From Podospora anserina (Eukaryota), in contig CM030332.1 in the NCBI GenBank assembly GCA_017654855.1, positions 4,960,001 to 5,024,000 of the forward strand: a stretch of DNA of 64,000 nt, written 5' to 3'. The position numbers and the translations under genes are program-made. Every line of letters starts with the position of its first letter. The stretch's first letter is position 1. Shown piece after piece: positions 23-60,140 of this stretch. A model generated the notes under the pieces. The model had not been told where the DNA came from, ran no database searches, and saw nothing but the letters and a program-made list of their open reading frames with translations.

Positions 23-3000
23 TTGGACATATCAGACCCAGGATCTGTTATCAAGGCCGCCAAACTGATTGCGACCTTTGCGAATGAGATCGAGAGACTG
101 GGCGGTGTCAAGTTTCTGGAGGATCTCGAGAAGATCAGAAACAATCAAACACCACCGAAATCAAACACAGACCCACCAAGTACCTCCATATCTGCCGATC
201 CAGAGAATCCAAAGCCCGAGGAAGCCAGTGGAAGCCAATCTGGCACCTCCCAAGCCCAGGAGACCAAGGAAGCCCAAACCAGCACAGCCACGGGTGAGAC
301 CGTTGCCATCAAGGACCACGACGTTCCCGCAAAGGCAGAAGAAATCACTGCCAAGGATCAGGCGGTTCAAGCAGTGCCTCCTGAGAAGGAGAAATCCTCC
401 CCAGAAGAATCCCCGGCGAAGGACGATGACACAGAAGGTGCCAGGGAGTCTTCCAAGGAAGACCCTCCTAAGGACGCTTCTCTAGACACCACGACAGAGA
501 AGAAAGATCGGGAATCCTCCGTGGAAGATGGCAAAGAGGATGGCAAGGAAGATGTAATTCCGGAGGGCATAGAAAAGAAGGACGAACCCCAGAAGGATGA
601 AAGTCCAAAGGAGGAATCTAAGGCGGAGCCCACTGATGATGATCCCAAAGAGACTGATAGTGAAGTCAAGGAGGAAGGGACTAAGGAGGAGGAGGGGGAG
701 GCGAAGGAGAGCGACGTTAAGGATAAGGCCAAGGAAGGAGAGACCAAAGAGAGCGAGGCCAAGGAAGAGATGACAGATGAGAACAAGCCAGAGGAAGCCA
801 AGGAGGAGGCTAAGGAGGAGGTCAAGGAGGAAACCCCAGAAGAAGTCAAGCAAGAACCCCCACCAGCGCCGGCGCCCGCTCCGTTACCTTTGCCCGATCC
901 TCCACACGACCCTTTCAAAGGTGTCAGAGCCGACCCCACCGAAACAGAAGAGATACCCTTGGATGCCAACGGAAAACCAAAGCCGAGCGCCAGCCGGCCG
1001 GGTATGCCCATTCTTCCCGCCCTCGGTCGGAGATGGGTGGCTAAGGAATCTGACGGCGTCGAACTGTTGGCCCCTGAAAAGGAATGGGAGCGCCGCAAAA
1101 AGGAACTGGGCGAGAAGAGCTTAGCGATTGACCAGCTCATGGCCATGGTTGGTCTTGAACAAGTCAAGTCAGAATTTCTTGCCGTCAAGTCTACCATTGA
1201 CGCGGCAAAGAACAGAAGAGGGATGCTTCGAAGACAAGAGTTCAATCTTGCGCTGATCGGCAATCCGGGAACGGGCAAGAAGACGCTGGCGACTATCTAC
1301 AGGACTTTGCTCAAGGAATGCGCCGCATGGTCTTCTGTCAACAGCCCGCACAATGAGAAGCGGTCCGGATTTGACTTTCAGGCGGACAAGGATATTGAAG
1401 GTTTCCACCTGGTGCTAAACAACTACGGCGAGAACTCCAAGGTCTTTGTCTTTATCGACTCCATCGAGGGGATGACGGGTTCCCTCAGGGCAGACCTCTT
1501 GTACACACTGGACCGTCATGCCGAGCGTCTTCGGCTGGTGGTTGTCATTGCTGGTACCGAGACGGCGATGAACAAGCTTTTGGCTTCGCGACCGAGCGGG
1601 AGATGGCAGTTTCCTCGACGGTTGACGATTAAGGATTACGATGACGAACAACTGCGTCTGATCTTTCTCCAGATGGTCCGACACAATGGATTCACCATCG
1701 AAGGGGGGGAGACCGGGCCGTACCCTCGTATTGTGGCCAAACGGGTTGCTCGGAACCGAGAGTCTGGTGGTTTCGCCAACGCCTATGATCTCGTGCTGGC
1801 TTGGGAGAAGATACTGGACCGACAGGCGGCAAGGCTTGACCTGGAGCACGCGGCGTGGAAGGCTGCCGAGGACAAGCGAGTCGAAGAGTGGGAGGCGGTG
1901 CTGGAAAAGAAGCGTGCTAACCTGAGAGAGCTGCTCAAGGAGAATCAGTCTCTGCAGGCAACTAAGGAGTGGTTGACAGAAGAGCTAGAGGTCGCGACTC
2001 AAAAGCTGGAAGAAAAGAAGCAAGAGCGAGAGCACTTGAAAGAGAAGGCGCTCTCCTCGAACGAGTCATCAGTCACCGAGCCCAAGGATGTCGAGAAGCC
2101 TGAGGAAGCCGTCAAGACCGAAGCGGTTGCTCAGCCTACAGAAGTTCTCAAGACTGAAGAGCCTGCCCAGGCCGAGGCCGTGGAAAAGGCTGTCGAACCT
2201 GAGACCGAGGCTGTGGAGGTTGAAGGAGAAGGTCTTAAGACTGTGGAAGAAGGCGTCAAACCTGTGGAAGAAGATGTCAAGCCTGTGGAAGAAGACGTCA
2301 AGCCCGATCAGGGAGGTGTCAAACCTGAGTCTGAAGCTGTGAAAGCCGGGGAAGAAGGCGCCGACACCAACCAAGGAGGTGTCAAACCCACAGGAGAAGA
2401 TGTCGAGCCTGAGAAGGAAGGCGTCGAATCCGCGAAGGAAAAGGTTGATCCGGAGAAAGAAGAAGTCAAATCTGCAGAAGAGGCTACACCCAAGCAGGAA
2501 GCTGCAAATTCCGAATCAGAAGACGTTGGGAAGGATGCCAAAGTCGAAAAAGAAGATCCCAAGGAGAAACAACGCGTGCTGAGCCCAGAAGAGGTTGAGA
2601 TTGCCGCTAAGATCGAGGAGCTTAAGAAGGCAATCGAGGAGGGCGAGGAGATGTTGTCTAGCCTGGTCGAGTACAAGAACTGCAGGGGCCAGGAGATCAC
2701 CGCTCGTTTGATTAAGTTGTTGAAGTACAAGAAGCTCCCAATGCCCGTTTCAGTGGACGACAAAACTTCTGTTCCGAAGGAGCCGTCGGAGAAGTCCGAG
2801 ATGTTGACGGATAATGATTCGAAGGACGAGAGAACCGGGGTTCAGAAGGCGGACCCAAGCTCTGCCGAAGGCAAGATTAAGTTTAATTTTGATGAGAAGA
2901 ATTTGGAGCTTGAGAAGGATGGGGACAAGAAAAATGGGGGACTCGAGGAAGACGAGGAGCCCAACAAAGACGAGGATGCCAGCAAGAACGAGGATGCCAG

Positions 3001-5410
3001 CAAGAACGAGGATGCCAGCAAAGACGAGGAGCCCGAGAAGGAAGTCGAGCCTAGCAGGGACATGGAGTCTACTAAGGATGCCGAGTCTTCCACCAAGGAC
3101 ATCAAGACTAGCCAGGACGAGAAGCAAGCCAGAGAAGAGGGGGCAACTGACGGCGAGACTACGGCCGAGGATGAAGCCAAGGCACGACAACTCACCGAGC
3201 AAGACACGAAGGCCGACACCGACGGCCAGTCAGACAAGAAATCAACCGAGGTCGAGACCAAGGCCGAAGATGAAAAGAGCGCTTTCACTGATGAGAGTGA
3301 TGAGAGTGATGAAGTGGACCTCTCGTTTCTGTCGCAGGGTCCAGCGCCAAAGCCCAACACCCGACTTCTCACCAAGGAAGACATCATCGGACCGGAGCCC
3401 GAGGATATTCGGGACAAGAGCAAGGCTTGGAAAGAGCTCAAAAAAATGGCCGGCCTCGAGAGCGTCAAGAAAGCGATTGGCGAGCTGCTCGACAGGGCCA
3501 AAGCCAATTATCGTCGCGAAGTCCTCGGCAAGGAACCACTCAAGACCTCCTTGAACCAAGTCTTTTTGGGTCCTCCCGGTACTGGCAAGACTACTGTAGC
3601 TAAGCTTTACGGCCAAATTCTGGCCGAGATTGGGCTTTTGTCCACGAAAGAGGTGGTATTCAAGACACCAGCGGATTTCATTGGGCAGTACATCGGTGAA
3701 TCCGAGGTCAAGACTGCCCATATACTCGACTCAACGATTGGAAAGGTGCTTATCATCGACGATGCCCACATGTTCTATCACGGTGGTCGTCCGGGCACGA
3801 CGCACGAGTCGGATGAGTTCCGTCTTAGCTGTATCGATGTCATGATCTCCAAGATTCACAACCAACCAGGCGAAGATCGATGTGTTTTGCTTCTCGGTTA
3901 TCCTGACATGATGGAGGAGATGTTCCAAAAGTGCAACCCTGGCTTGCGGCGACGATTTCCCCTGGAGGAGGCCTTCCGGTTCCAGAGCTACGATGACAAG
4001 ACGCTGAATGAAATTCTACGGTTGAAAATGGCCAAGGAGGAGATCACGGCTGATGAGGGAGCCATAGAAGTGGCAGCTGAAGTTCTCCGGAGAGCGAGGG
4101 ACCGTCCTAACTTTGGCAATGGTGGTGATGTTGACAACCTGCTGAACCAAGCCAAGACTCGATATCGCGCCAGGACCAAGGCGAAGGCGGAAGCGGAAGC
4201 CGAAGGTGTAGAGAAACAATGCACGGAAAAGCCAGTCGAGCTGCCCCCGGTCACTCGGGTCGACATCGAAGAAGCTGTGGCTGGAGAACAACTAGCCCAA
4301 GCCCAGGTCGACCTGCTGACTGCCGTCAAAACCAAGGCAGCCGAACCTCCAACAGATAGCATTCAGCCCGAGGAAGAAGAGCTCGAGTCACCTCCACCAA
4401 CGGAAACAACCGACAAACCCACAGACAATGCCGACATTCTCACTCACTCGGAAGCCAGCATCGTCCTCACTCGCGAGGATTTTGACCCAGACTGGAACCG
4501 CGGCGCCACTGCCTCCTCGAAGTGTAAATCCCTCTTCTCCTCCCTCATCGGCTACGAGTCCATCATTTCCAAATTCGAAGGCTATCAACGCCTGGCAGCA
4601 AACATGCGCCGCCGTGGCAAAGACCCGCGCGAAATCGTCCCCTTCACCTTCATCTTCAAAGGACCCCCCGGCACCGGCAAAACCCACACCGCACGCATCA
4701 TCGGCCAAATCTTTTACGACATGGGCTTCTTGTCCACCAACGAAGTGATTGAATGCTCTGCCAGCAACCTCATAGGCCAATACATGGGCCACACCTCGCC
4801 CAAAGTGATCAACCTATTTGAAAAAGCCCTCGGAAAAGTCCTCTTCATCGACGAAGCCTACCGTCTCGGGGGGGGCAACCGCGCCACGGGGCATGCTTCT
4901 TACGAAGAGGAGGCAATTGGAGAACTAGTCGATTGCATGACCAAGCCACGGTACCTCCGCAAAATGATTATTGTTCTGGCGGGTTACGACAAGGACATGG
5001 ATAACCTCATGAAGGTCAACGCGGGACTGAGGGGGAGGTTTGCGACAGAAATCAACTTTCCCACCATGACGGCTTCCAAGGCGAAGCAGCATTTGGAGAA
5101 TTTGTTGCTCAAGGAGGATATTGAGCTACGGGATGAGTTTGATCCTGGGGAGGAGGAGAGGGAGAAGGTGTTGAGGTATTTGCATCAGCTGGGGAAGACG
5201 GCCGGGTGGGCGAATGCGAGGGATGTGAAGAGTTTGGCGGCGGCGGTGACGGGGCAGGTTTATAGGGATGTGGATTTGGATGAGCTTGAGAGGGAGGAGA
5301 ATGAGGAGGAGGTAGTCAAGAGGAAGCTGTTGAGGGTTAGTACGAAGGAGTTGAATGGGCATCTGAGGGAGATGTTGAAGCAGAGGATGAGGAGCGGGGG
5401 GGTGGCTTGA
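23..5410 (+). CDS. Large acidic AAA+ ATPase with three CbbX/SpoVK-type AAA modules; 5' end probably lies upstream of the window
   Basis: 1795-aa ORF with three Walker A motifs (GNPGTGKK, GPPGTGKT, GPPGTGKT), Walker B-like VFIDS, LIIDDA and LFIDEA, plus family-typical NPGLRRRF/NAGLRGRF and FGNGGDV/WANARDV segments. The ORF track starts it at a TTG, so the true start is unresolved. Confidence 0.85.
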   Translation: MDISDPGSVIKAAKLIATFANEIERLGGVKFLEDLEKIRNNQTPPKSNTDPPSTSISADPENPKPEEASGSQSGTSQAQETKEAQTSTATGETVAIKDHDVPAKAEEITAKDQAVQAVPPEKEKSSPEESPAKDDDTEGARESSKEDPPKDASLDTTTEKKDRESSVEDGKEDGKEDVIPEGIEKKDEPQKDESPKEESKAEPTDDDPKETDSEVKEEGTKEEEGEAKESDVKDKAKEGETKESEAKEEMTDENKPEEAKEEAKEEVKEETPEEVKQEPPPAPAPAPLPLPDPPHDPFKGVRADPTETEEIPLDANGKPKPSASRPGMPILPALGRRWVAKESDGVELLAPEKEWERRKKELGEKSLAIDQLMAMVGLEQVKSEFLAVKSTIDAAKNRRGMLRRQEFNLALIGNPGTGKKTLATIYRTLLKECAAWSSVNSPHNEKRSGFDFQADKDIEGFHLVLNNYGENSKVFVFIDSIEGMTGSLRADLLYTLDRHAERLRLVVVIAGTETAMNKLLASRPSGRWQFPRRLTIKDYDDEQLRLIFLQMVRHNGFTIEGGETGPYPRIVAKRVARNRESGGFANAYDLVLAWEKILDRQAARLDLEHAAWKAAEDKRVEEWEAVLEKKRANLRELLKENQSLQATKEWLTEELEVATQKLEEKKQEREHLKEKALSSNESSVTEPKDVEKPEEAVKTEAVAQPTEVLKTEEPAQAEAVEKAVEPETEAVEVEGEGLKTVEEGVKPVEEDVKPVEEDVKPDQGGVKPESEAVKAGEEGADTNQGGVKPTGEDVEPEKEGVESAKEKVDPEKEEVKSAEEATPKQEAANSESEDVGKDAKVEKEDPKEKQRVLSPEEVEIAAKIEELKKAIEEGEEMLSSLVEYKNCRGQEITARLIKLLKYKKLPMPVSVDDKTSVPKEPSEKSEMLTDNDSKDERTGVQKADPSSAEGKIKFNFDEKNLELEKDGDKKNGGLEEDEEPNKDEDASKNEDASKNEDASKDEEPEKEVEPSRDMESTKDAESSTKDIKTSQDEKQAREEGATDGETTAEDEAKARQLTEQDTKADTDGQSDKKSTEVETKAEDEKSAFTDESDESDEVDLSFLSQGPAPKPNTRLLTKEDIIGPEPEDIRDKSKAWKELKKMAGLESVKKAIGELLDRAKANYRREVLGKEPLKTSLNQVFLGPPGTGKTTVAKLYGQILAEIGLLSTKEVVFKTPADFIGQYIGESEVKTAHILDSTIGKVLIIDDAHMFYHGGRPGTTHESDEFRLSCIDVMISKIHNQPGEDRCVLLLGYPDMMEEMFQKCNPGLRRRFPLEEAFRFQSYDDKTLNEILRLKMAKEEITADEGAIEVAAEVLRRARDRPNFGNGGDVDNLLNQAKTRYRARTKAKAEAEAEGVEKQCTEKPVELPPVTRVDIEEAVAGEQLAQAQVDLLTAVKTKAAEPPTDSIQPEEEELESPPPTETTDKPTDNADILTHSEASIVLTREDFDPDWNRGATASSKCKSLFSSLIGYESIISKFEGYQRLAANMRRRGKDPREIVPFTFIFKGPPGTGKTHTARIIGQIFYDMGFLSTNEVIECSASNLIGQYMGHTSPKVINLFEKALGKVLFIDEAYRLGGGNRATGHASYEEEAIGELVDCMTKPRYLRKMIIVLAGYDKDMDNLMKVNAGLRGRFATEINFPTMTASKAKQHLENLLLKEDIELRDEFDPGEEEREKVLRYLHQLGKTAGWANARDVKSLAAAVTGQVYRDVDLDELEREENEEEVVKRKLLRVSTKELNGHLREMLKQRMRSGGVA

Positions 5411-54042: not shown

Positions 54043-57000
54043 ACCTATCGAGTCGGTTATTCAGTCTTTACCAAGACGAGGGTTGGCGAAAGTGCCAGAG
54101 GGCAAATCGAAAGCATCACATCAATAGAAGTCGCGTGTGAGATATCTGGTTGCTTGTATTGTTAGAAAAATGCGGTGACCTGAAGAAGTACGAGCAGGCA
54201 GAACCCATTGAAGGCCAGATGCTGGTCTCCCATGCCGTTTGCATTGCTCAAGGGGACGGTGAGAATGGCTTGCTTGATCACCCCAACCCAAGGGGTGCCA
54301 ATGCTATGGTGCTGGGTATAAGTGGTAGAAAACGCCACACTGGCGCAGTCACACCACACCGGAAAACACTCGATGAAACAGGACAAATTGATGAAGTCAG
54401 GTAGATGTCCGGCTCCAAGGAGAGACCTGCACTGTACCTGGTTCCTTGAGTTAACCAACTTTGGCACTCGTATTCCCATCATGTTACCCTCTCCAACATG
54501 AGTATCGAACTTGTGGTCAGGTATCCAAGGAGATTGTTTGTGTTAGGAGTAAGACCTTCGAGTTCGCCGACCATATCCCAATGGCTGCATGACATACCCG
54601 TGACCCAATCCTTCCCGGTAAAGCGTGTGATCCTTCGAGGACGGACAGACCCCTTTGCGGAAGTGAGAACCATGGAATTTGAACCTGCTTGGGCGAAAGC
54701 ATTTCTCCGATCCTTGTGATGGTCTCGCCCTCTGCGGCTAGTGCCGAGAAAGTGAAGTTGTCTTAGACACCTCTTCAGCAACAACTTTCGGCAGCACTTT
54801 CATCCGTTTGGGCTTGCATTGAATGGCGCGGCAATATGAACCCTTCTTGCCAGATACCTAAGGTATACTTGCTCGAGAGGTAAAATCGGATCAGGGCTGT
54901 CGACGATAGAAGAAAATGTGATAACTAAGTGATAAAACCCCGAACACGATAGATTGTTGAAAATGTTGAAAAGAGAAGGCTTTTCAGTCAGACTTGTATC
55001 TCACAAGGCAACATTTTTCTGAGCCCGCGGTCCATTACATCGTGCTTCCCGGAGCCGGAGTGCATGAGCTGTGCTGTTAGGGTCAGTTCGACTGTGGCTG
55101 TTCATGGGAACTTGACAATCCGGAGAACACGGTGGAAAGGTTTCGAGGCACTCTCGTCACAGGGAGGTATCATGTCGCGCACCGACTCTACCATAATGAG
55201 TGAAAGTAAACTTGCAAGTGAGATACCTGTAGCCGATGTTAGAAATGATTCGCAAACATAGAGTGATTTGCTTGGAAAGATGATAACCTAGACTTGCCCT
55301 TTTCAATAACATGGTACAAGTATTTTTGGTGTCTAATCAAGGAGACATGTGTAGCTTGTTGCGAATAGCTTCAGTGTTGACCAAATCGAGATGTTTGTCA
55401 TCAACGGTCAGGCTCCATCATCGAAGTTTAGGCATTCGATTTCATCTGAAACCGTGACATGCCGGGGGTTTTCAACATGTCACTGACGATCATCGCCCGA
55501 AAGCCGGTGTTTCGGACACCACACTACAAAGTAGTTGCTCTAAATCTCAGTCCCGGTGAGATCCAACGGCCGCGGAGGGGTTTATTGCACTACCGCGTAC
55601 AGCGTTTACTAAAAAGACCGTTGCAGTTGGGGGGAATTTTACACAAGAGCAACTCATCGCGTGAGCTTATTTTTCTCAAAAGTCGTCGACAGAGCCGAAT
55701 TGGCGGCCCCACCATCACCCCTTTCATCTGCCATCTCCCGGGGCCGAGCCGTCCTTCCGGGCCTCCACACAGCGGGATGCCCCGGTGGCCAGCTCTCGGC
55801 AATAAAAGGGGAAATCGGCGGTCAGCGTATTCTTGTTGGATTGAGCAAACTTTCCATGATGGAAACAAACGAGATGGGGCGCTTCATAAGCATAGAAGGG
55901 GCATCGAAATCTTGGTCTTCGATGAAGTTCAGACCAGAGGACCCTATGATGCACAGAAATAGCTTCGAGAACAACCAGATGGAGCAGATCGATGGATCGC
56001 GACACAAGCAATGCCTGACTTTGAGATGTGCGGTCCAAGGCCAGGCCAGGGTTGGGATGGAAGATGGTGTGGGCACACCTGCTGCTCAGTACCGCCCTAT
56101 TGGGATCGTTGGGGTTCTGATTCTGGCCTCTGATTGGACAGGAGATCTCTGATGTGTCGTCACCCACACTTTATGTACTGCCAGCTCAGAGCCCCTCTTC
56201 CTTTTCTGTGAGCTTGTGCCTTTTCCAAGCTTCCATCTCAAGCCTCAGTGGCCCAGCCTCCCGACTTTCTGATCCAAGTTGGGCGCTCACCAGCCCCTTC
56301 CACTTTGTTCATTTTGTGCATTGTGCTTATTGTCTCGTTGTTTGTCTGGCGCTCTGCTCGTCTGTTCGTCTGCTCGTCCGCGCAAACAGAGCAAATCAGG
56401 GCACGGGGACAGGCAGCAAGCTTGATGGCCGGAACTGATGACGGAGCTCTGTCCGTTCGTATATCTCTGCCAGGCATTAATGTTCCAAGCTCGATGTTGC
56501 ACAGCCGCATGCTGCACCTCGAAGATATTCTTCAGCTTCTTCTTCGTACTACTGGCCTGTCTGTAATTAGCAACTGGTATCCTGAAATCAAAAGTCCATC
56601 CGCCCGACCGACCCGTCGACTGTCTCTATGCTTGTTGGGTCCGAAGCTGCATTGCATGGAGGCACAAGGCAGGCTGACAGCTTCGGTCTGATGAGATGGA
56701 TGGATGTATAAGGCCGAGGAAGCCCAATTCATCTGGTCTTCCTCTCCTTTCAGGCCCCCTTTATCACCAACCCACCACGGCCCTGTCTTTCAAGCTTCTT
56801 TTGCTGGAGATCTCGTGGATATCCATCTCCGTTGAAACCAAACAAGCGAGAGCTGCTATGAGTCCGTGCACCCGCTAAGGCTCAGCTCTGGGCGAAACAG
56901 CGATCTCCCAATCACCGTAGCGGAGGGTGGCCCTGGCGTTGTTCCCGTCTGCTTCTACCCCCGAAATCGCGGACCTCGGGGCCGTCTTTTTTTTTGATTC

Positions 57001-57906
57001 CCATCTTCACCACTTCGTTCCAACTCGACAGTGGATTGAACGTCCGTTGCCAGCCATTGGCTCTCGTCCTCGCTATGTGCTTCTGACCAGTTACACTCCT
57101 TGCATATTCCCTCGTTTGAACAGCGGGACCAGACCCCTTACAGTCGTTAATCAGGCGGCAGTGACACATTTGGTGAGTGAGGTCGAAAGTGAGGTACCGC
57201 GAGGCGATCTCTCTCGGGTCGAGTGTGGGTTGGGTGTTTGGGTTTTGCGGGAGGGTCGCGATACGACACCATTGTCGTCACCGGTCGAGCTGTGCTGTGC
57301 TAATAACTAATTTGTCTAATCGTTGGCAGCATCATCTTCCGCGCACACACACACGCACACATTCCGAACGTTTTTTTGTCGCTGGACCCGACAAGTAATT
57401 GGCGCCAGATGCTCTGGGACAACGCGCCTAATCTTTATTCTCTGTTTTGGCGCTGCTGACTGCGCGCCGCTTGGATTTTGAGGGGGCGCGCATATCCGTC
57501 CAACCACCAAACTCGTTCGGCAATTTTTGGCCTTCCAGCCACGCATTTTCCAAGGTATCCAAGTCTCCCGACCTCCAGCTTTTTCGCACCTCCACGCAGC
57601 CGCAGCTGTGTCCTTTGCTGCTCTGCTCTGTTGGATCCCCCGGATGGTCTAGGACCTCACGATCTTGCTTCCATTCTTACATTCCCTCCACACCATTGTT
57701 AATTTTGCGCTTTGCGGTCTCTCAGAGCCAAGATTCCCGGCTTTCCGGAATTCCTACGGTGAGTGAAGGCCAGCTGGAAGCTCCGCAACAGCTCACACAC
57801 CAACCCCACCATCATTGCATGAATCCTTGATCAGGAACAGCCTCTGATCTGGCAACCCAACAGCAGCTCCCAGCCCCGTCCCCAGACCCTTGCCACCGCC
57901 GTCACC

Positions 57907-60140
57907 ACGCTGAGTGGTGACAGTCCCGCTTTCGCCTTGTCGACCACACCAGCCCCCGCTGGTGCTTTGGGAGACCTTGCTGCTGGCAGTCAAGAAGGTT
58001 CCCTTCGCGACCCTAGCGATTTCCACCACCCAACCTCCCCGTCTTTTTTCCAGCGCCAGCAACAGCAGCAAACCTTCCAATCTCGCCCCGGCACTGTCAC
58101 GCCCCAGCAACGCGAAGACAGATCCCCCACACCGTCTTCACACAGGACTCTCCGTCGCACTCCGCGCTTCTCGGCTACTCCCAGTCCACGACCTTCCGAG
58201 ACCCAGCGCCGACCGCACTTTGAGGCAGCCGCCGGTGGAGCTGTCCCACCGCCGATATTCTCTCTTCCCGGTGCTCGCAACAGCTTTGGTCAACCCGAAC
58301 AGGTATTCAGTCCCCTTCGACGACAGCTCTCCCAGGATCTCAGTGACGACGACGAAGAGACCTCCACTGTCTTGCCGTATCTCTACGGTCACCAGCGCCT
58401 TTCTTCCTCTACCAAGGACAAGCCGCCTCACCCCCTCCTTAGCCTCTCCAAGCAGACCCAAAGCGCCATCCTTTGGACCCTTGAGGAAGCACTTCGCCAG
58501 CCCAATTCGTTTTCGCCTGACTTTGTCGAAGAAAACGCTTCGATGGCCGACCTTCTTGCTGGTAGTGGCCCTACCACCACCAATGGCAATGGTGGTGCGA
58601 CCACGCGACCAACAGCGCCTCCAGCCCAACCTGGATCCCCTCAGCAAGTAATTCGTGGCCCTAGGATGATCATGCGAGAGCGTGCCGAGCGCGAAGCGAG
58701 ACAGAGAGCCGAACGGGAGCAGATGGAGCGCGCTCGTGCTGAAGAAGAGGCTCGTTTGCTTGAAGAGTCTCGGCGACGTGCTGCTGAGCGCAGAGCTCCC
58801 GTTGCTGGCGCTGCTCCAGAGATCAGCCACACCCCCAGTGACCCAGCTTCTCAGCGACGACAACAGCGTGCCCAGGAAGCCAGTGGCCACACCCGGATGC
58901 CATCATCATCCTTGGCCCAGCAGCAACCCTCTGCTATCCCACCTCCACTGAGACCTAGAAATGCTCAGACCCCGCAGAACTTTAGCTCTACGCCCCAGCC
59001 GGGTGCCGGAGCAGCCCCATCGCAACCTGGCGCGGACCCGACATCACAAGCCATGGGCTCCACTCGGGTTAAGAATTCGTTTCCTCATGCTTTTGAGCGC
59101 TGGGAGGCCCTGTCTGCGCACTGGGAAGGTATGACCAGCTTTTGGTTGCGCAGGCTTCAGGAAAATACAGATGAGGCTGAGCGAAACCCAATATCGTCTC
59201 AGCTCTCTCGCCAAGTTGCAGACTTGTCGGCTGCAGGCGCCAATCTCTTCCATGCCGTTGTCGAACTGCAGAGACTGCGTGCCAGTTCTGAGAGGAAGTT
59301 TCAACGTTGGTTTTACGAAACTCGTTCTGCCGAAGAGCGTCATCAGGAAGTCAATGCTACCCTGCACGCTCAACTTGAGCAGGAGCAACAGCGACGAATT
59401 GAGGCTGCTGACAATGCGGCGAAATACGAAGCTGAGAACGCCAAGCTTCAGAAATTGGTTACCGAAATGCGACGCGAATTGCTTATCTCCAAGGAAGAAG
59501 CCCGCCGGGCGTGGGAGGAGCTTGGTCGTCGCGAACAGGAAGAGCGTGAGCGTGTCGCTGCTTTGCAGCAGGGCGCTCCAACCACTGTTGGGGGTGTGCC
59601 CGTTGTCGTGATGACTCAAAGTGTCCCGAGCCGTGAGCCAAGCCGTCACCAGCGTTCGCAAAGCCAGCAAACCGCCGACACTTCGGAATACATCGCTGCC
59701 CAAGGACCTCAATACCCCGACTATGCTCAATCCACGACTTCTCAACCTCGCGCTTCTTCGCCGGACAACCACCCAGGATATTTCGTTCCGACCAATGAAC
59801 CTCCTCGCCAAGCTCAGTATGCTGCCGAGTCCGAAGCTGGTTACGACGAAGGTACGTGTTCCTGTACCTGACACTGCCCAACTGATGTGAGCAATATGCT
59901 AACCGAGAAGCAGATGATTATGATGAAACCCCGACTTCTCAAGCTGAACAGACAAATTACCCACCGTCCAGTTCCCAGTGGGCAGGCACGTACACTGGAC
60001 AACCCGACTACTCAGGACAAAGTTTTGCGGCTCCCGGTTGGGAACAAATGCCTCGACACCACCATCCAACTCGGCTCAGTGACGTTCTAGAGGAAGACGA
60101 GCGCAGTCGGACATCGGCGAGCCAAGTCAGTCGAGCCTGA
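57907..60140 (+). CDS. Coiled-coil protein of unknown function; first ATG at 58543, frame open from 57823 (start shown is a candidate ACG); intron at 59852-59913
   Basis: FPHAFERWEALSAHWEGMTSFW, LFHAVVELQRLRASSERKFQRWF, ELLISKEEARRAWEELGRREQEER; spliced last exon ends HHHPTRLSDVLEEDERSRTSASQVSRA*. Confidence 0.85.

Follow-up and report, generated by a model that had tools for sequence, protein, structure and literature searches.

A Podospora gene with an ATG-free frame ahead of its annotated start

We analyzed a stretch of 64,000 nucleotides (nt) from Podospora anserina (assembly GCA_017654855.1, contig CM030332.1, positions 4,960,001 to 5,024,000 of the forward strand), referred to below as the window. 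It contains a gene orthologous to Neurospora crassa NCU03174, whose product is conserved in ascomycetes, has a disordered N-terminal part and a coiled coil, and is of unknown function. The gene lies on the + strand, as do all of its features described here, and its annotated start is the AUG at 58543..58545 (MADLL...), which would be the start of a short isoform. A preliminary description of the window, made from its letters alone, had proposed that the frame upstream of this AUG is a 240-codon N-terminal extension translated from a non-AUG codon, either ACG 57907 or CTG 57910, and that the gene gives rise to two isoforms. Comparative and transcript evidence supports a non-AUG start with two isoforms and points to a different codon, UUG 57937.

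Inspection of the letters showed that the frame is open, stop to stop, from 57823 to 59871 (682 codons). The ATG at 57819, which reads ATG AAT CCT TGA, is followed by no other + strand ATG until 58543, leaving 240 in-frame codons without Met ahead of the latter. No other of the window's 1035 + strand ATG intervals is as long as the resulting gap of 724 nt; the runner-up measures 580 nt. The open frame and its lack of ATG had been described correctly, but the accompanying chance estimate (about 11 ATGs expected) was too high, since the ATG-free stretch is 39% C and such a composition gives 2.7 (first-order estimate) to 6.0 (base composition) expected ATGs. The - strand of the window has a longer ATG-free gap, of 994 nt. 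Judged by the window alone, the 724-nt gap is only mildly unusual and constitutes a weak signal; it becomes significant because of the comparison with orthologues and not because of the window statistics. The - strand gap corresponds to window 2067-3063, where the translations are Ser/Leu-rich and of low complexity, and it may be the antisense of a low-complexity gene on the + strand.

The translated exon matched 1706 proteins among the 8000 candidates scored, with Podospora bellae-mahoneyi QC761_112870 as the top match (98% identity), and the annotated orthologues span 85 to 99% of the 676-amino-acid (aa) query. The extension itself is letter-identical to P. anserina PODANS_1_12880. Public gene models disagree on where the protein begins. 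The P. anserina and N. crassa reference models start at AUG 58543 and treat the extension as 5' untranslated region (UTR). Within the Podospora complex, the models of 511 and 515 aa start with MADLL, that is, at ATG 58543, those of 767, 801, 841, and 848 aa reach different upstream ATGs through different extra introns, and the 2008 annotation shows a pair of partial genes, the one covering the extension being Met-less. Seven Podospora-complex models of this one gene are found with five different starts or MADLL. In Sordariomycetes, the annotated N termini are mutually unrelated up to a block reading F-A/T-L-S and can be aligned thereafter. Such disagreement is the behavior to be expected of gene predictors if a real start is not an ATG.

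No Pfam family scored above its cutoff (the best, MAP7, reached an E value of 0.009 and 16.3 bits against the 28.5 required), Rfam gave no match at E values up to 1 within 56500-58700, and the ESM Atlas returned solely "hypothetical protein" clusters from Ascomycota. Literature searches for the tags Pa_1_12870, SMAC_02899, MYCTH_2142157, and 7C14.100 found nothing, and NCU03174 was found only in PMC6468904, the available text of which tables it as a "hypothetical protein" among candidate suppressors of meiotic silencing. Nothing was found on the gene family as a whole, genome-wide lists in paper supplements lying outside the search.

The spliced transcript and its leader

Transcript evidence came from the contigs of 4 of the 24 listed sequencing runs, belonging to four studies and presumed, like all 17 smaller runs of the list, to be RNA; the four contain 16 to 27 Mb of contigs, versus 36 Mb in DNA-like runs. 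Each of the four contained one long contig, with identical joints, representing a single spliced form. Its leader comprises exon A (56707..57172), covered by contig pieces in 4/4 runs, intron 1 (57173..57329, GTGAGT..CAG, 157 nt), exon B (57330..57758), and intron 2 (57759..57863, GTGAGT..CAG, 105 nt). The 5' ends of the contigs range from 56707 to 56932 and do not fix the transcription start; further pieces, of low depth, lie upstream of 56700. The joint of intron 2 (57758|57864, GT..AG) was present in 4/4 runs, confirming the earlier proposal that a leader intron at this place is real and excises ATG 57819. Intron 1 was deduced from the table of contig pieces and is not a listed joint, because a (CA)n-like repeat at the start of exon B (window 57336-57364) was skipped in the contig alignment; the four main contigs have 35 letters between 57172 and 57365, identical to 57330-57364, and this is the basis for the intron. 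Downstream of the annotated AUG, the rest of the coding part in exon C (58546..59851) is followed by intron 3 (59852..59913, GTACGT..CTAAC..CAG, 62 nt; joint 59851|59914, GT..AG, 4/4 runs) and by the last coding exon (59914..60140), which ends with the TGA at 60138-60140. Logan protein P0134, found on 28 contigs, spans both coding joints and reads FPEFLR|SSQPRPQ over intron 2.

The leader ahead of the proposed UUG is thus about 0.75 to 0.95 kb long, with two introns and four upstream open reading frames (uORFs), which start at 56858 (6 codons) and 57075 (3 codons) in exon A and occupy 57409-57459 (16 codons) and 57644-57652 (ATG GTC TAG, 2 codons) in exon B. The immediate stop noted earlier after ATG 57644 was found as described, but the ATG given as 57408 lies at 57409 and opens the 16-codon frame. 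Exon B joins the main open reading frame (ORF) in frame, but its TAA at 57700-57702 closes that frame within the spliced mRNA, leaving the mature mRNA without any AUG in this frame ahead of 58543. A spliced upstream exon supplying an in-frame ATG, which would have provided an ordinary start, was not present in the contigs.

Peptides encoded by the uORFs are kept within subclades only, for example, MPC.SSQA.. in the orthologous loci L001, L005, L007, and L013. Chaetomiaceae-like leaders carry a uORF of 21 to 26 codons with the conserved peptide MPC/MSC..SSQA..SFC.., located at -707 (L001), -792 (L005), -852 (L007), and -791 (L013) relative to the conserved TTG described below. The annotated N terminus of Staphylotrichum tortipilum protein P0024 consists of this Chaetomiaceae-like uORF peptide, indicating that a predictor fused the uORF to the gene.

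Two further observations concern the coding part of the transcript. At the last intron (59852-59913), the reading ..GYDEGTCSYDYDE.. of the curated models of P. anserina (515 aa) and P. comata differs from ..GYDEDDYDE.. (511 aa), the reading of the spliced contigs (4/4 runs) and of the model for P. pseudoanserina; in the two curated models, this intron seems to be mis-set. In run X1 only, the transcript is split into two contigs that share 30 letters at window 58367-58396, and those 30 letters also terminate a third contig (1387 nt), the remainder of which is unlike the window. This break is probably an assembly-graph branch at the shared 30-mer.

A conserved UUG codon at the edge of the frame

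Orthologous DNA was compared in an alignment of the N-terminal part of the window with parts of 11 stored orthologues (alignment A1) and by scanning metagenome contigs, which yielded 159 pattern-matching stretches and 80 confirmed loci, 52 of which were examined for their start. Downstream of the in-frame stop, the earliest ATG in the frame is that of the conserved Met (AUG 58543 in Podospora) in 51 of these loci; the remaining one extends past the end of its contig. This Met is invariant (M227 in alignment A1, M203 in alignment A8). In the 34 more distant loci listed, the open stretch before it measures 441 to 666 nt.

In Podospora, the motif TTC GCC TTG TCG (57931..57942) contains the proposed UUG start codon at 57937-57939. 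The same motif, in the form TTC GCC/ACC/ATC/ATA TTG TCG/TCT, occurs in 18 loci (13 of them distinct), all of which have an in-frame TGA three codons before the TTG, making the latter the fourth codon after the stop. A second, Helotiales-like group, whose named nearest relatives are Lachnellula, Phialocephala, Rhynchosporium, and Glarea (Helotiales), has mostly TTC ACC TTG TCG near the 5' edge of the frame. Wherever the motif is joined to the Met by an open frame (36 sources, 27 of them non-identical), the codon is TTG, and L020 and L056 have it as well. Leu can be encoded in six ways, yet CTN was never seen at this position, nor were ATG or other near-cognate codons. A purine invariably occupies -3, the codon before the TTG changes amino acid, and the Ser codon after it varies synonymously (TCG/TCT/TCC). 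Within the loci, the motif was counted 35 times on the + strand versus 3 times on the - strand.

Since the TTG is invariant among six possible Leu codons and the purine at -3 is kept, the pattern fits a start codon with its context and not a Leu residue. The comparison across loci demonstrates that the TTG and its context are conserved, and a start of the long form at UUG 57937, about 600 bases upstream of the annotated AUG, appears likely. The search for a conserved near-cognate codon, suggested by the preliminary description, thus succeeded, but the codon is TTG, and the length of 240 codons has to be revised: the conserved extension comprises 202 codons (57937..58542), ATG-free in all frames, and the first 38 open codons of Podospora lie ahead of it. 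The Podospora frame is open there only because its spacer is 7 nt longer. The more distant loci L034-L080 are without the F-x-L-S motif; in many of them, the open frame begins close to a TTG, ATT, or GTG, but as the homology of these positions is not established, they were left uncounted.

Both codons first proposed as the start of the long isoform, ACG 57907 and CTG 57910, are in frame in Podospora with A at -3, as had been stated, and the available text of PMC5487733 describes CUG and ACG as usable near-cognate codons in Neurospora cpc-1. However, their equivalents lie upstream of the in-frame TGA in the 18 loci, showing that they do not form a conserved start. The residues that separate these two codons from the TTG lack conservation, with tblastn matches starting at the F of FALS in 15 of the best 20 loci listed, and in Podospora the two codons sit in the arm and loop of the conserved upstream hairpin described below. 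Initiation of the long isoform at either of them is thus quite improbable.

The same loci bear on the alternative that the extension is translated from an ordinary AUG on an exon or transcript missed by the contigs. Contigs drop rare variants, and several public models do reach upstream ATGs through extra introns, but these models conflict with one another and with the spliced contigs of 4/4 runs. In addition, a conserved AG acceptor immediately preceding the TTC GCC TTG motif is not seen in the orthologues, and the 18 loci carry their in-frame stop at only three codons from the TTG. We therefore regard such an AUG as very improbable indeed. Readthrough of the TGA from an upstream AUG-initiated ORF was also considered and rejected: no ATG occurs in this frame of L001 from the preceding TAG to the TGA, and the Podospora frame differs.

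Translation of the extension

The extension is conserved in Sordariomycetes and Helotiales. Over 21 sequences, the mean pairwise difference was 0.345, 0.291, and 0.578 at codon positions 1, 2, and 3, respectively. In an alignment guided by the protein translation, the median ratio of nonsynonymous to synonymous substitution rates (dN/dS) of the extension was 0.25 (range, 0.13 to 0.39; 45 usable unsaturated pairs of 210), and that of the next 1200 nt of coding sequence (CDS) was 0.11 (13 of 136 pairs). Stops number 0, 51, and 97 in frames 0, +1, and +2 of the extension, and the residues LRRTP.F, PSP, LSQ.L, and SAIL..LEE.LR.P upstream of the Met are invariant. These comparisons establish that the extension is coding. 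An open frame kept in orthologues, a dN/dS below 1, and the absence of AUG, which the preliminary description had named as the marks of a translated extension, were all found. On the basis of conservation, dN/dS, the frame-specific absence of stops, and the in-frame stop in the leader, the extension is very probably translated without an AUG, as had been suggested.

The P. anserina and N. crassa reference annotations take the opposite position, that the stretch is an untranslated leader; a related possibility is that it is translated merely for regulation, with the peptide being irrelevant. Neither agrees with the low dN/dS, the codon periodicity, the lack of in-frame stops, and motifs that are invariant across two fungal classes, and we find this explanation scarcely credible.

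An AlphaFold model (53 sequences) had a predicted template modeling score of 0.28 and a mean predicted local distance difference test (pLDDT) score of 56. In this model, residues 1-167 are disordered, residues 172-187 form a helix with a pLDDT of about 83, and a coiled coil spans residues 382-545. Fifteen residues separate the Met from the end of the SAILWxLEEALR helix, the best-conserved motif in the extension.

Avoidance of ATG ahead of the annotated start

In 18 non-identical Sordariomycete-like sequences, the extension contains no ATG in 10,677 nt, versus 119 in the next 9,814 nt of CDS (about 600 nt of each ORF). Likewise, Met is absent from 2581 extension codons, versus 131 in 6273 CDS codons. 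The Helotiales-like set has 11 ATGs in 3,894 nt of extension versus 38 in 3,867 nt of CDS. Synonymous choice was examined at Asn, Asp, His, and Tyr codons that precede a codon starting with G, where a T ending would create an ATG. T endings before G occurred in 0 of 64 cases in the extension versus 115 of 247 in the CDS (Fisher test, 1.8e-15) and, within the extension, in 0 of 64 cases before G versus 50 of 180 before non-G codons (Fisher test, 3.9e-8); as the counted sequences are related, these values overstate independence and are upper bounds on significance. The counts demonstrate that ATG is avoided at synonymous sites.

Avoidance of ATG at synonymous sites in all frames points to leaky scanning as far as the invariant AUG 58543, since out-of-frame AUGs within a coding region should be selected against where scanning subunits have to traverse that region on the way to a second start. 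A second isoform initiated at AUG 58543 by leaky scanning is likely, and we think it rather probable that both starts are used, giving predicted products of 713 aa (UUG) and 511 aa (AUG). The two isoforms of the earlier proposal are thus favored by the ATG avoidance together with the invariant Met.

The alternative is that only the UUG-initiated long protein is functional, AUG 58543 being a conserved internal Met and the ATG avoidance having some other cause. It can draw on the U at position -3 of this AUG and on the best-conserved motif, in a confidently modeled helix, ending so close to the Met. It is at odds with the avoidance of out-of-frame ATGs over 600 nt, whose sole known cause is the passage of scanning subunits, and with an extension free of Met next to a CDS rich in ATGs. 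We consider it rather unlikely.

The Helotiales-like sequences contain one or two ATGs in the +1 frame, each opening an ORF of 2 to 13 codons. One of these ATGs is conserved 226 to 247 nt after the TTG in L021, L023, L027, L030, L032, L063, L066, and L068. It arises from a CAT or AAT codon followed by a GAx codon, and its ORF of 12 to 13 codons (2 in L021) ends about 150 to 190 nt before the Met. It may be a conserved overlapping short ORF, the layout of which would leave room for reinitiation.

Stem-loops on either side of the UUG

An inverted repeat upstream of the UUG (57901..57921) consists of GTCACCAC, a 5-nt loop in the window, and GTGGTGAC. In the window and in L001-L019, its loop measures 4 to 7 nt and the repeat ends 8 to 15 nt upstream of the TTG, and L020 and L056 retain a 6-bp core of the stem. 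The arms are invariant and the loop is variable, with 98% of the cells paired (15 sequences). The stem was part of the minimum-energy fold in 8/8 sequences, with modest local-fold Z-scores of -0.8 to -3.3, and 0 of its 7 inner pairs covary. Its standing as an RNA structure rests on the invariant arms beside a variable loop and flanks, the only supporting changes being a compensatory closing pair (L017) and a G.U pair (L018).

The second stem-loop, CACCAGC-CCCC-GCTGGTG (57947..57964; arms, 57947-57953 and 57958-57964), starts at +11 from the U of the UUG. Of its cells, 92.8% are paired, and 4/7 pairs change on both sides (12 distinct sequences). In an alignment fitted to the model, and with the stem lying within coding sequence, its covariation score was 0.226, versus 0.116 for shuffles (0/500 reached it) and at most 0.094 when it was slid. 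Only the downstream stem of the two shows covariation. A covariance model of the whole cassette gave one match per locus, on the + strand, in Sordariomycete-like loci only, and no conserved structure around the TTG was found in 8 Helotiales-like loci (consensus energy, -0.74 kcal/mol).

Discussion

We propose that the Podospora gene makes a 713-aa UUG form plus a 511-aa AUG form by leaky scanning, an interpretation that seems to us, on balance, probable. Scanning 40S subunits would pass the four uORFs and arrive at UUG 57937, whose context is favorable (purine at -3 in TTCGCC UUG UCG). Some of them would initiate there with initiator Met-tRNA (Met-tRNAi), producing the 713-aa protein, and the remaining subunits would cross 606 nt, presumably kept AUG-free in three frames by selection, and initiate at AUG 58543, producing the 511-aa protein. 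Missing from the short form would be the whole disordered extension, including the conserved motifs LRRTPRF and RRQLSQDLSDD-EE as well as the SAILWxLEEALR helix. The stem-loops that flank the UUG in Sordariomycetes may adjust the frequency of its use.

Several points weigh against this proposal, besides the translation-guided alignment behind the dN/dS values and the relatedness of the counted sequences. A short form without the SAILWxLEEALR helix might be of little use. The Helotiales-like loci keep a +1-frame ATG inside the extension. Contigs can miss transcription starts and rare isoforms, so that a minor transcript starting within the extension or carrying an extra exon is possible. Finally, the spliced Podospora frame is open for 78 codons further upstream of the UUG and contains additional in-frame near-cognate codons (TTG 57712, AAG 57730, and ATT 57733, besides ACG 57907 and CTG 57910), from which minor longer forms could start.

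With regard to the stem-loops, Kozak 1990 (cited in PMC11165317) and the START study (PMC11165317) report, in the available text of the latter, that downstream structure assists initiation, with a START optimum for CUG in reticulocyte lysate of +17 to +32 and best at +23 to +26. Like START, the Podospora gene has a stem-loop downstream of a near-cognate start; unlike START, it has an additional stem-loop upstream, and its 7-bp downstream stem begins at +11, outside the START/Kozak distance of about +14 to +32. A hairpin at +11 lowered CUG initiation in the mammalian in vitro study (available text of PMC11165317), which adds to the points just listed. A doubtful, though conceivable, idea is that the balance between long and short form is set or switched by the cassette (an 8-bp stem upstream and a 7-bp stem at +11) acting jointly with the uORF-rich leader. 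A bound factor might mediate such an effect, or the CACCAC and GTGGTG arms might pair in alternative ways. If this were true, the gene would have a structure-gated near-cognate start with a geometry outside both the Kozak and the START distance rules.

In yeast, GRS1 (UUG) and ALA1 (ACG) have near-cognate starts upstream of the AUG that give N-terminally extended second isoforms. Fungal 6-phosphogluconate dehydrogenase, according to the available text of PMC7214817, likewise has a non-AUG peroxisomal isoform, extended at its N terminus from a near-cognate codon upstream of the AUG. The extensions of these proteins are short targeting signals, whereas that of the Podospora protein would be a 202-residue disordered region with no recognizable targeting signal.

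Closer to the present case, N. crassa cpc-1 has N-terminal extensions from conserved near-cognate codons (Ivanov et al. 2017, PMC5487733), and the same paper, in its available text, also documents ribosome footprints on UUGs of the eIF5 leader. Like cpc-1, the Podospora gene is a filamentous ascomycete gene having a leader of more than 700 nt with uORFs and an AUG-less in-frame extension, which in cpc-1 is conserved across Pezizomycotina together with its near-cognate codons. The near-cognate codons of cpc-1 are several, according to the available text (ACG, AUU, and CUG), with a uORF separating them from the main AUG. In the Podospora gene, by contrast, only one codon, a UUG, is invariant, a stop shuts the frame a short way ahead of it in orthologues, the run to the AUG is free of ATG, and a stem-loop stands on either side of the UUG. 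Moreover, cpc-1 is backed by in vitro work and ribosome profiling, whereas the case for the Podospora gene is built on sequence comparison and transcripts. A CUG start has also been proposed for P. anserina IDI-4 (Dementhon et al. 2004, as cited in the available text of PMC5487733); there, the organism is the same and the non-AUG start is conserved in Neurospora, but the codon and the gene differ. N-terminal extensions from near-cognate codons are thus already known, and the Podospora gene would add another case.

The lack of an AUG would explain why public models of this gene conflict (511, 515, 767, 801, 841, and 848 aa, plus a Met-less partial gene) and would provide a rule for correcting gene models in at least two classes of Pezizomycotina. 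It would add a conserved region of 202 residues to a protein that is cut short in the P. anserina and N. crassa references, and knockouts, tags, and proteomics of NCU03174 and Pa_1_12870 should reckon with this extension. With a solitary invariant UUG, closure of the frame just upstream, and no other AUG over the long distance to the invariant one at the annotated start, the locus would be a clean natural reporter of start codon stringency in filamentous fungi, and the avoidance of ATG at synonymous sites offers a simple, transferable computational test for leaky scanning.

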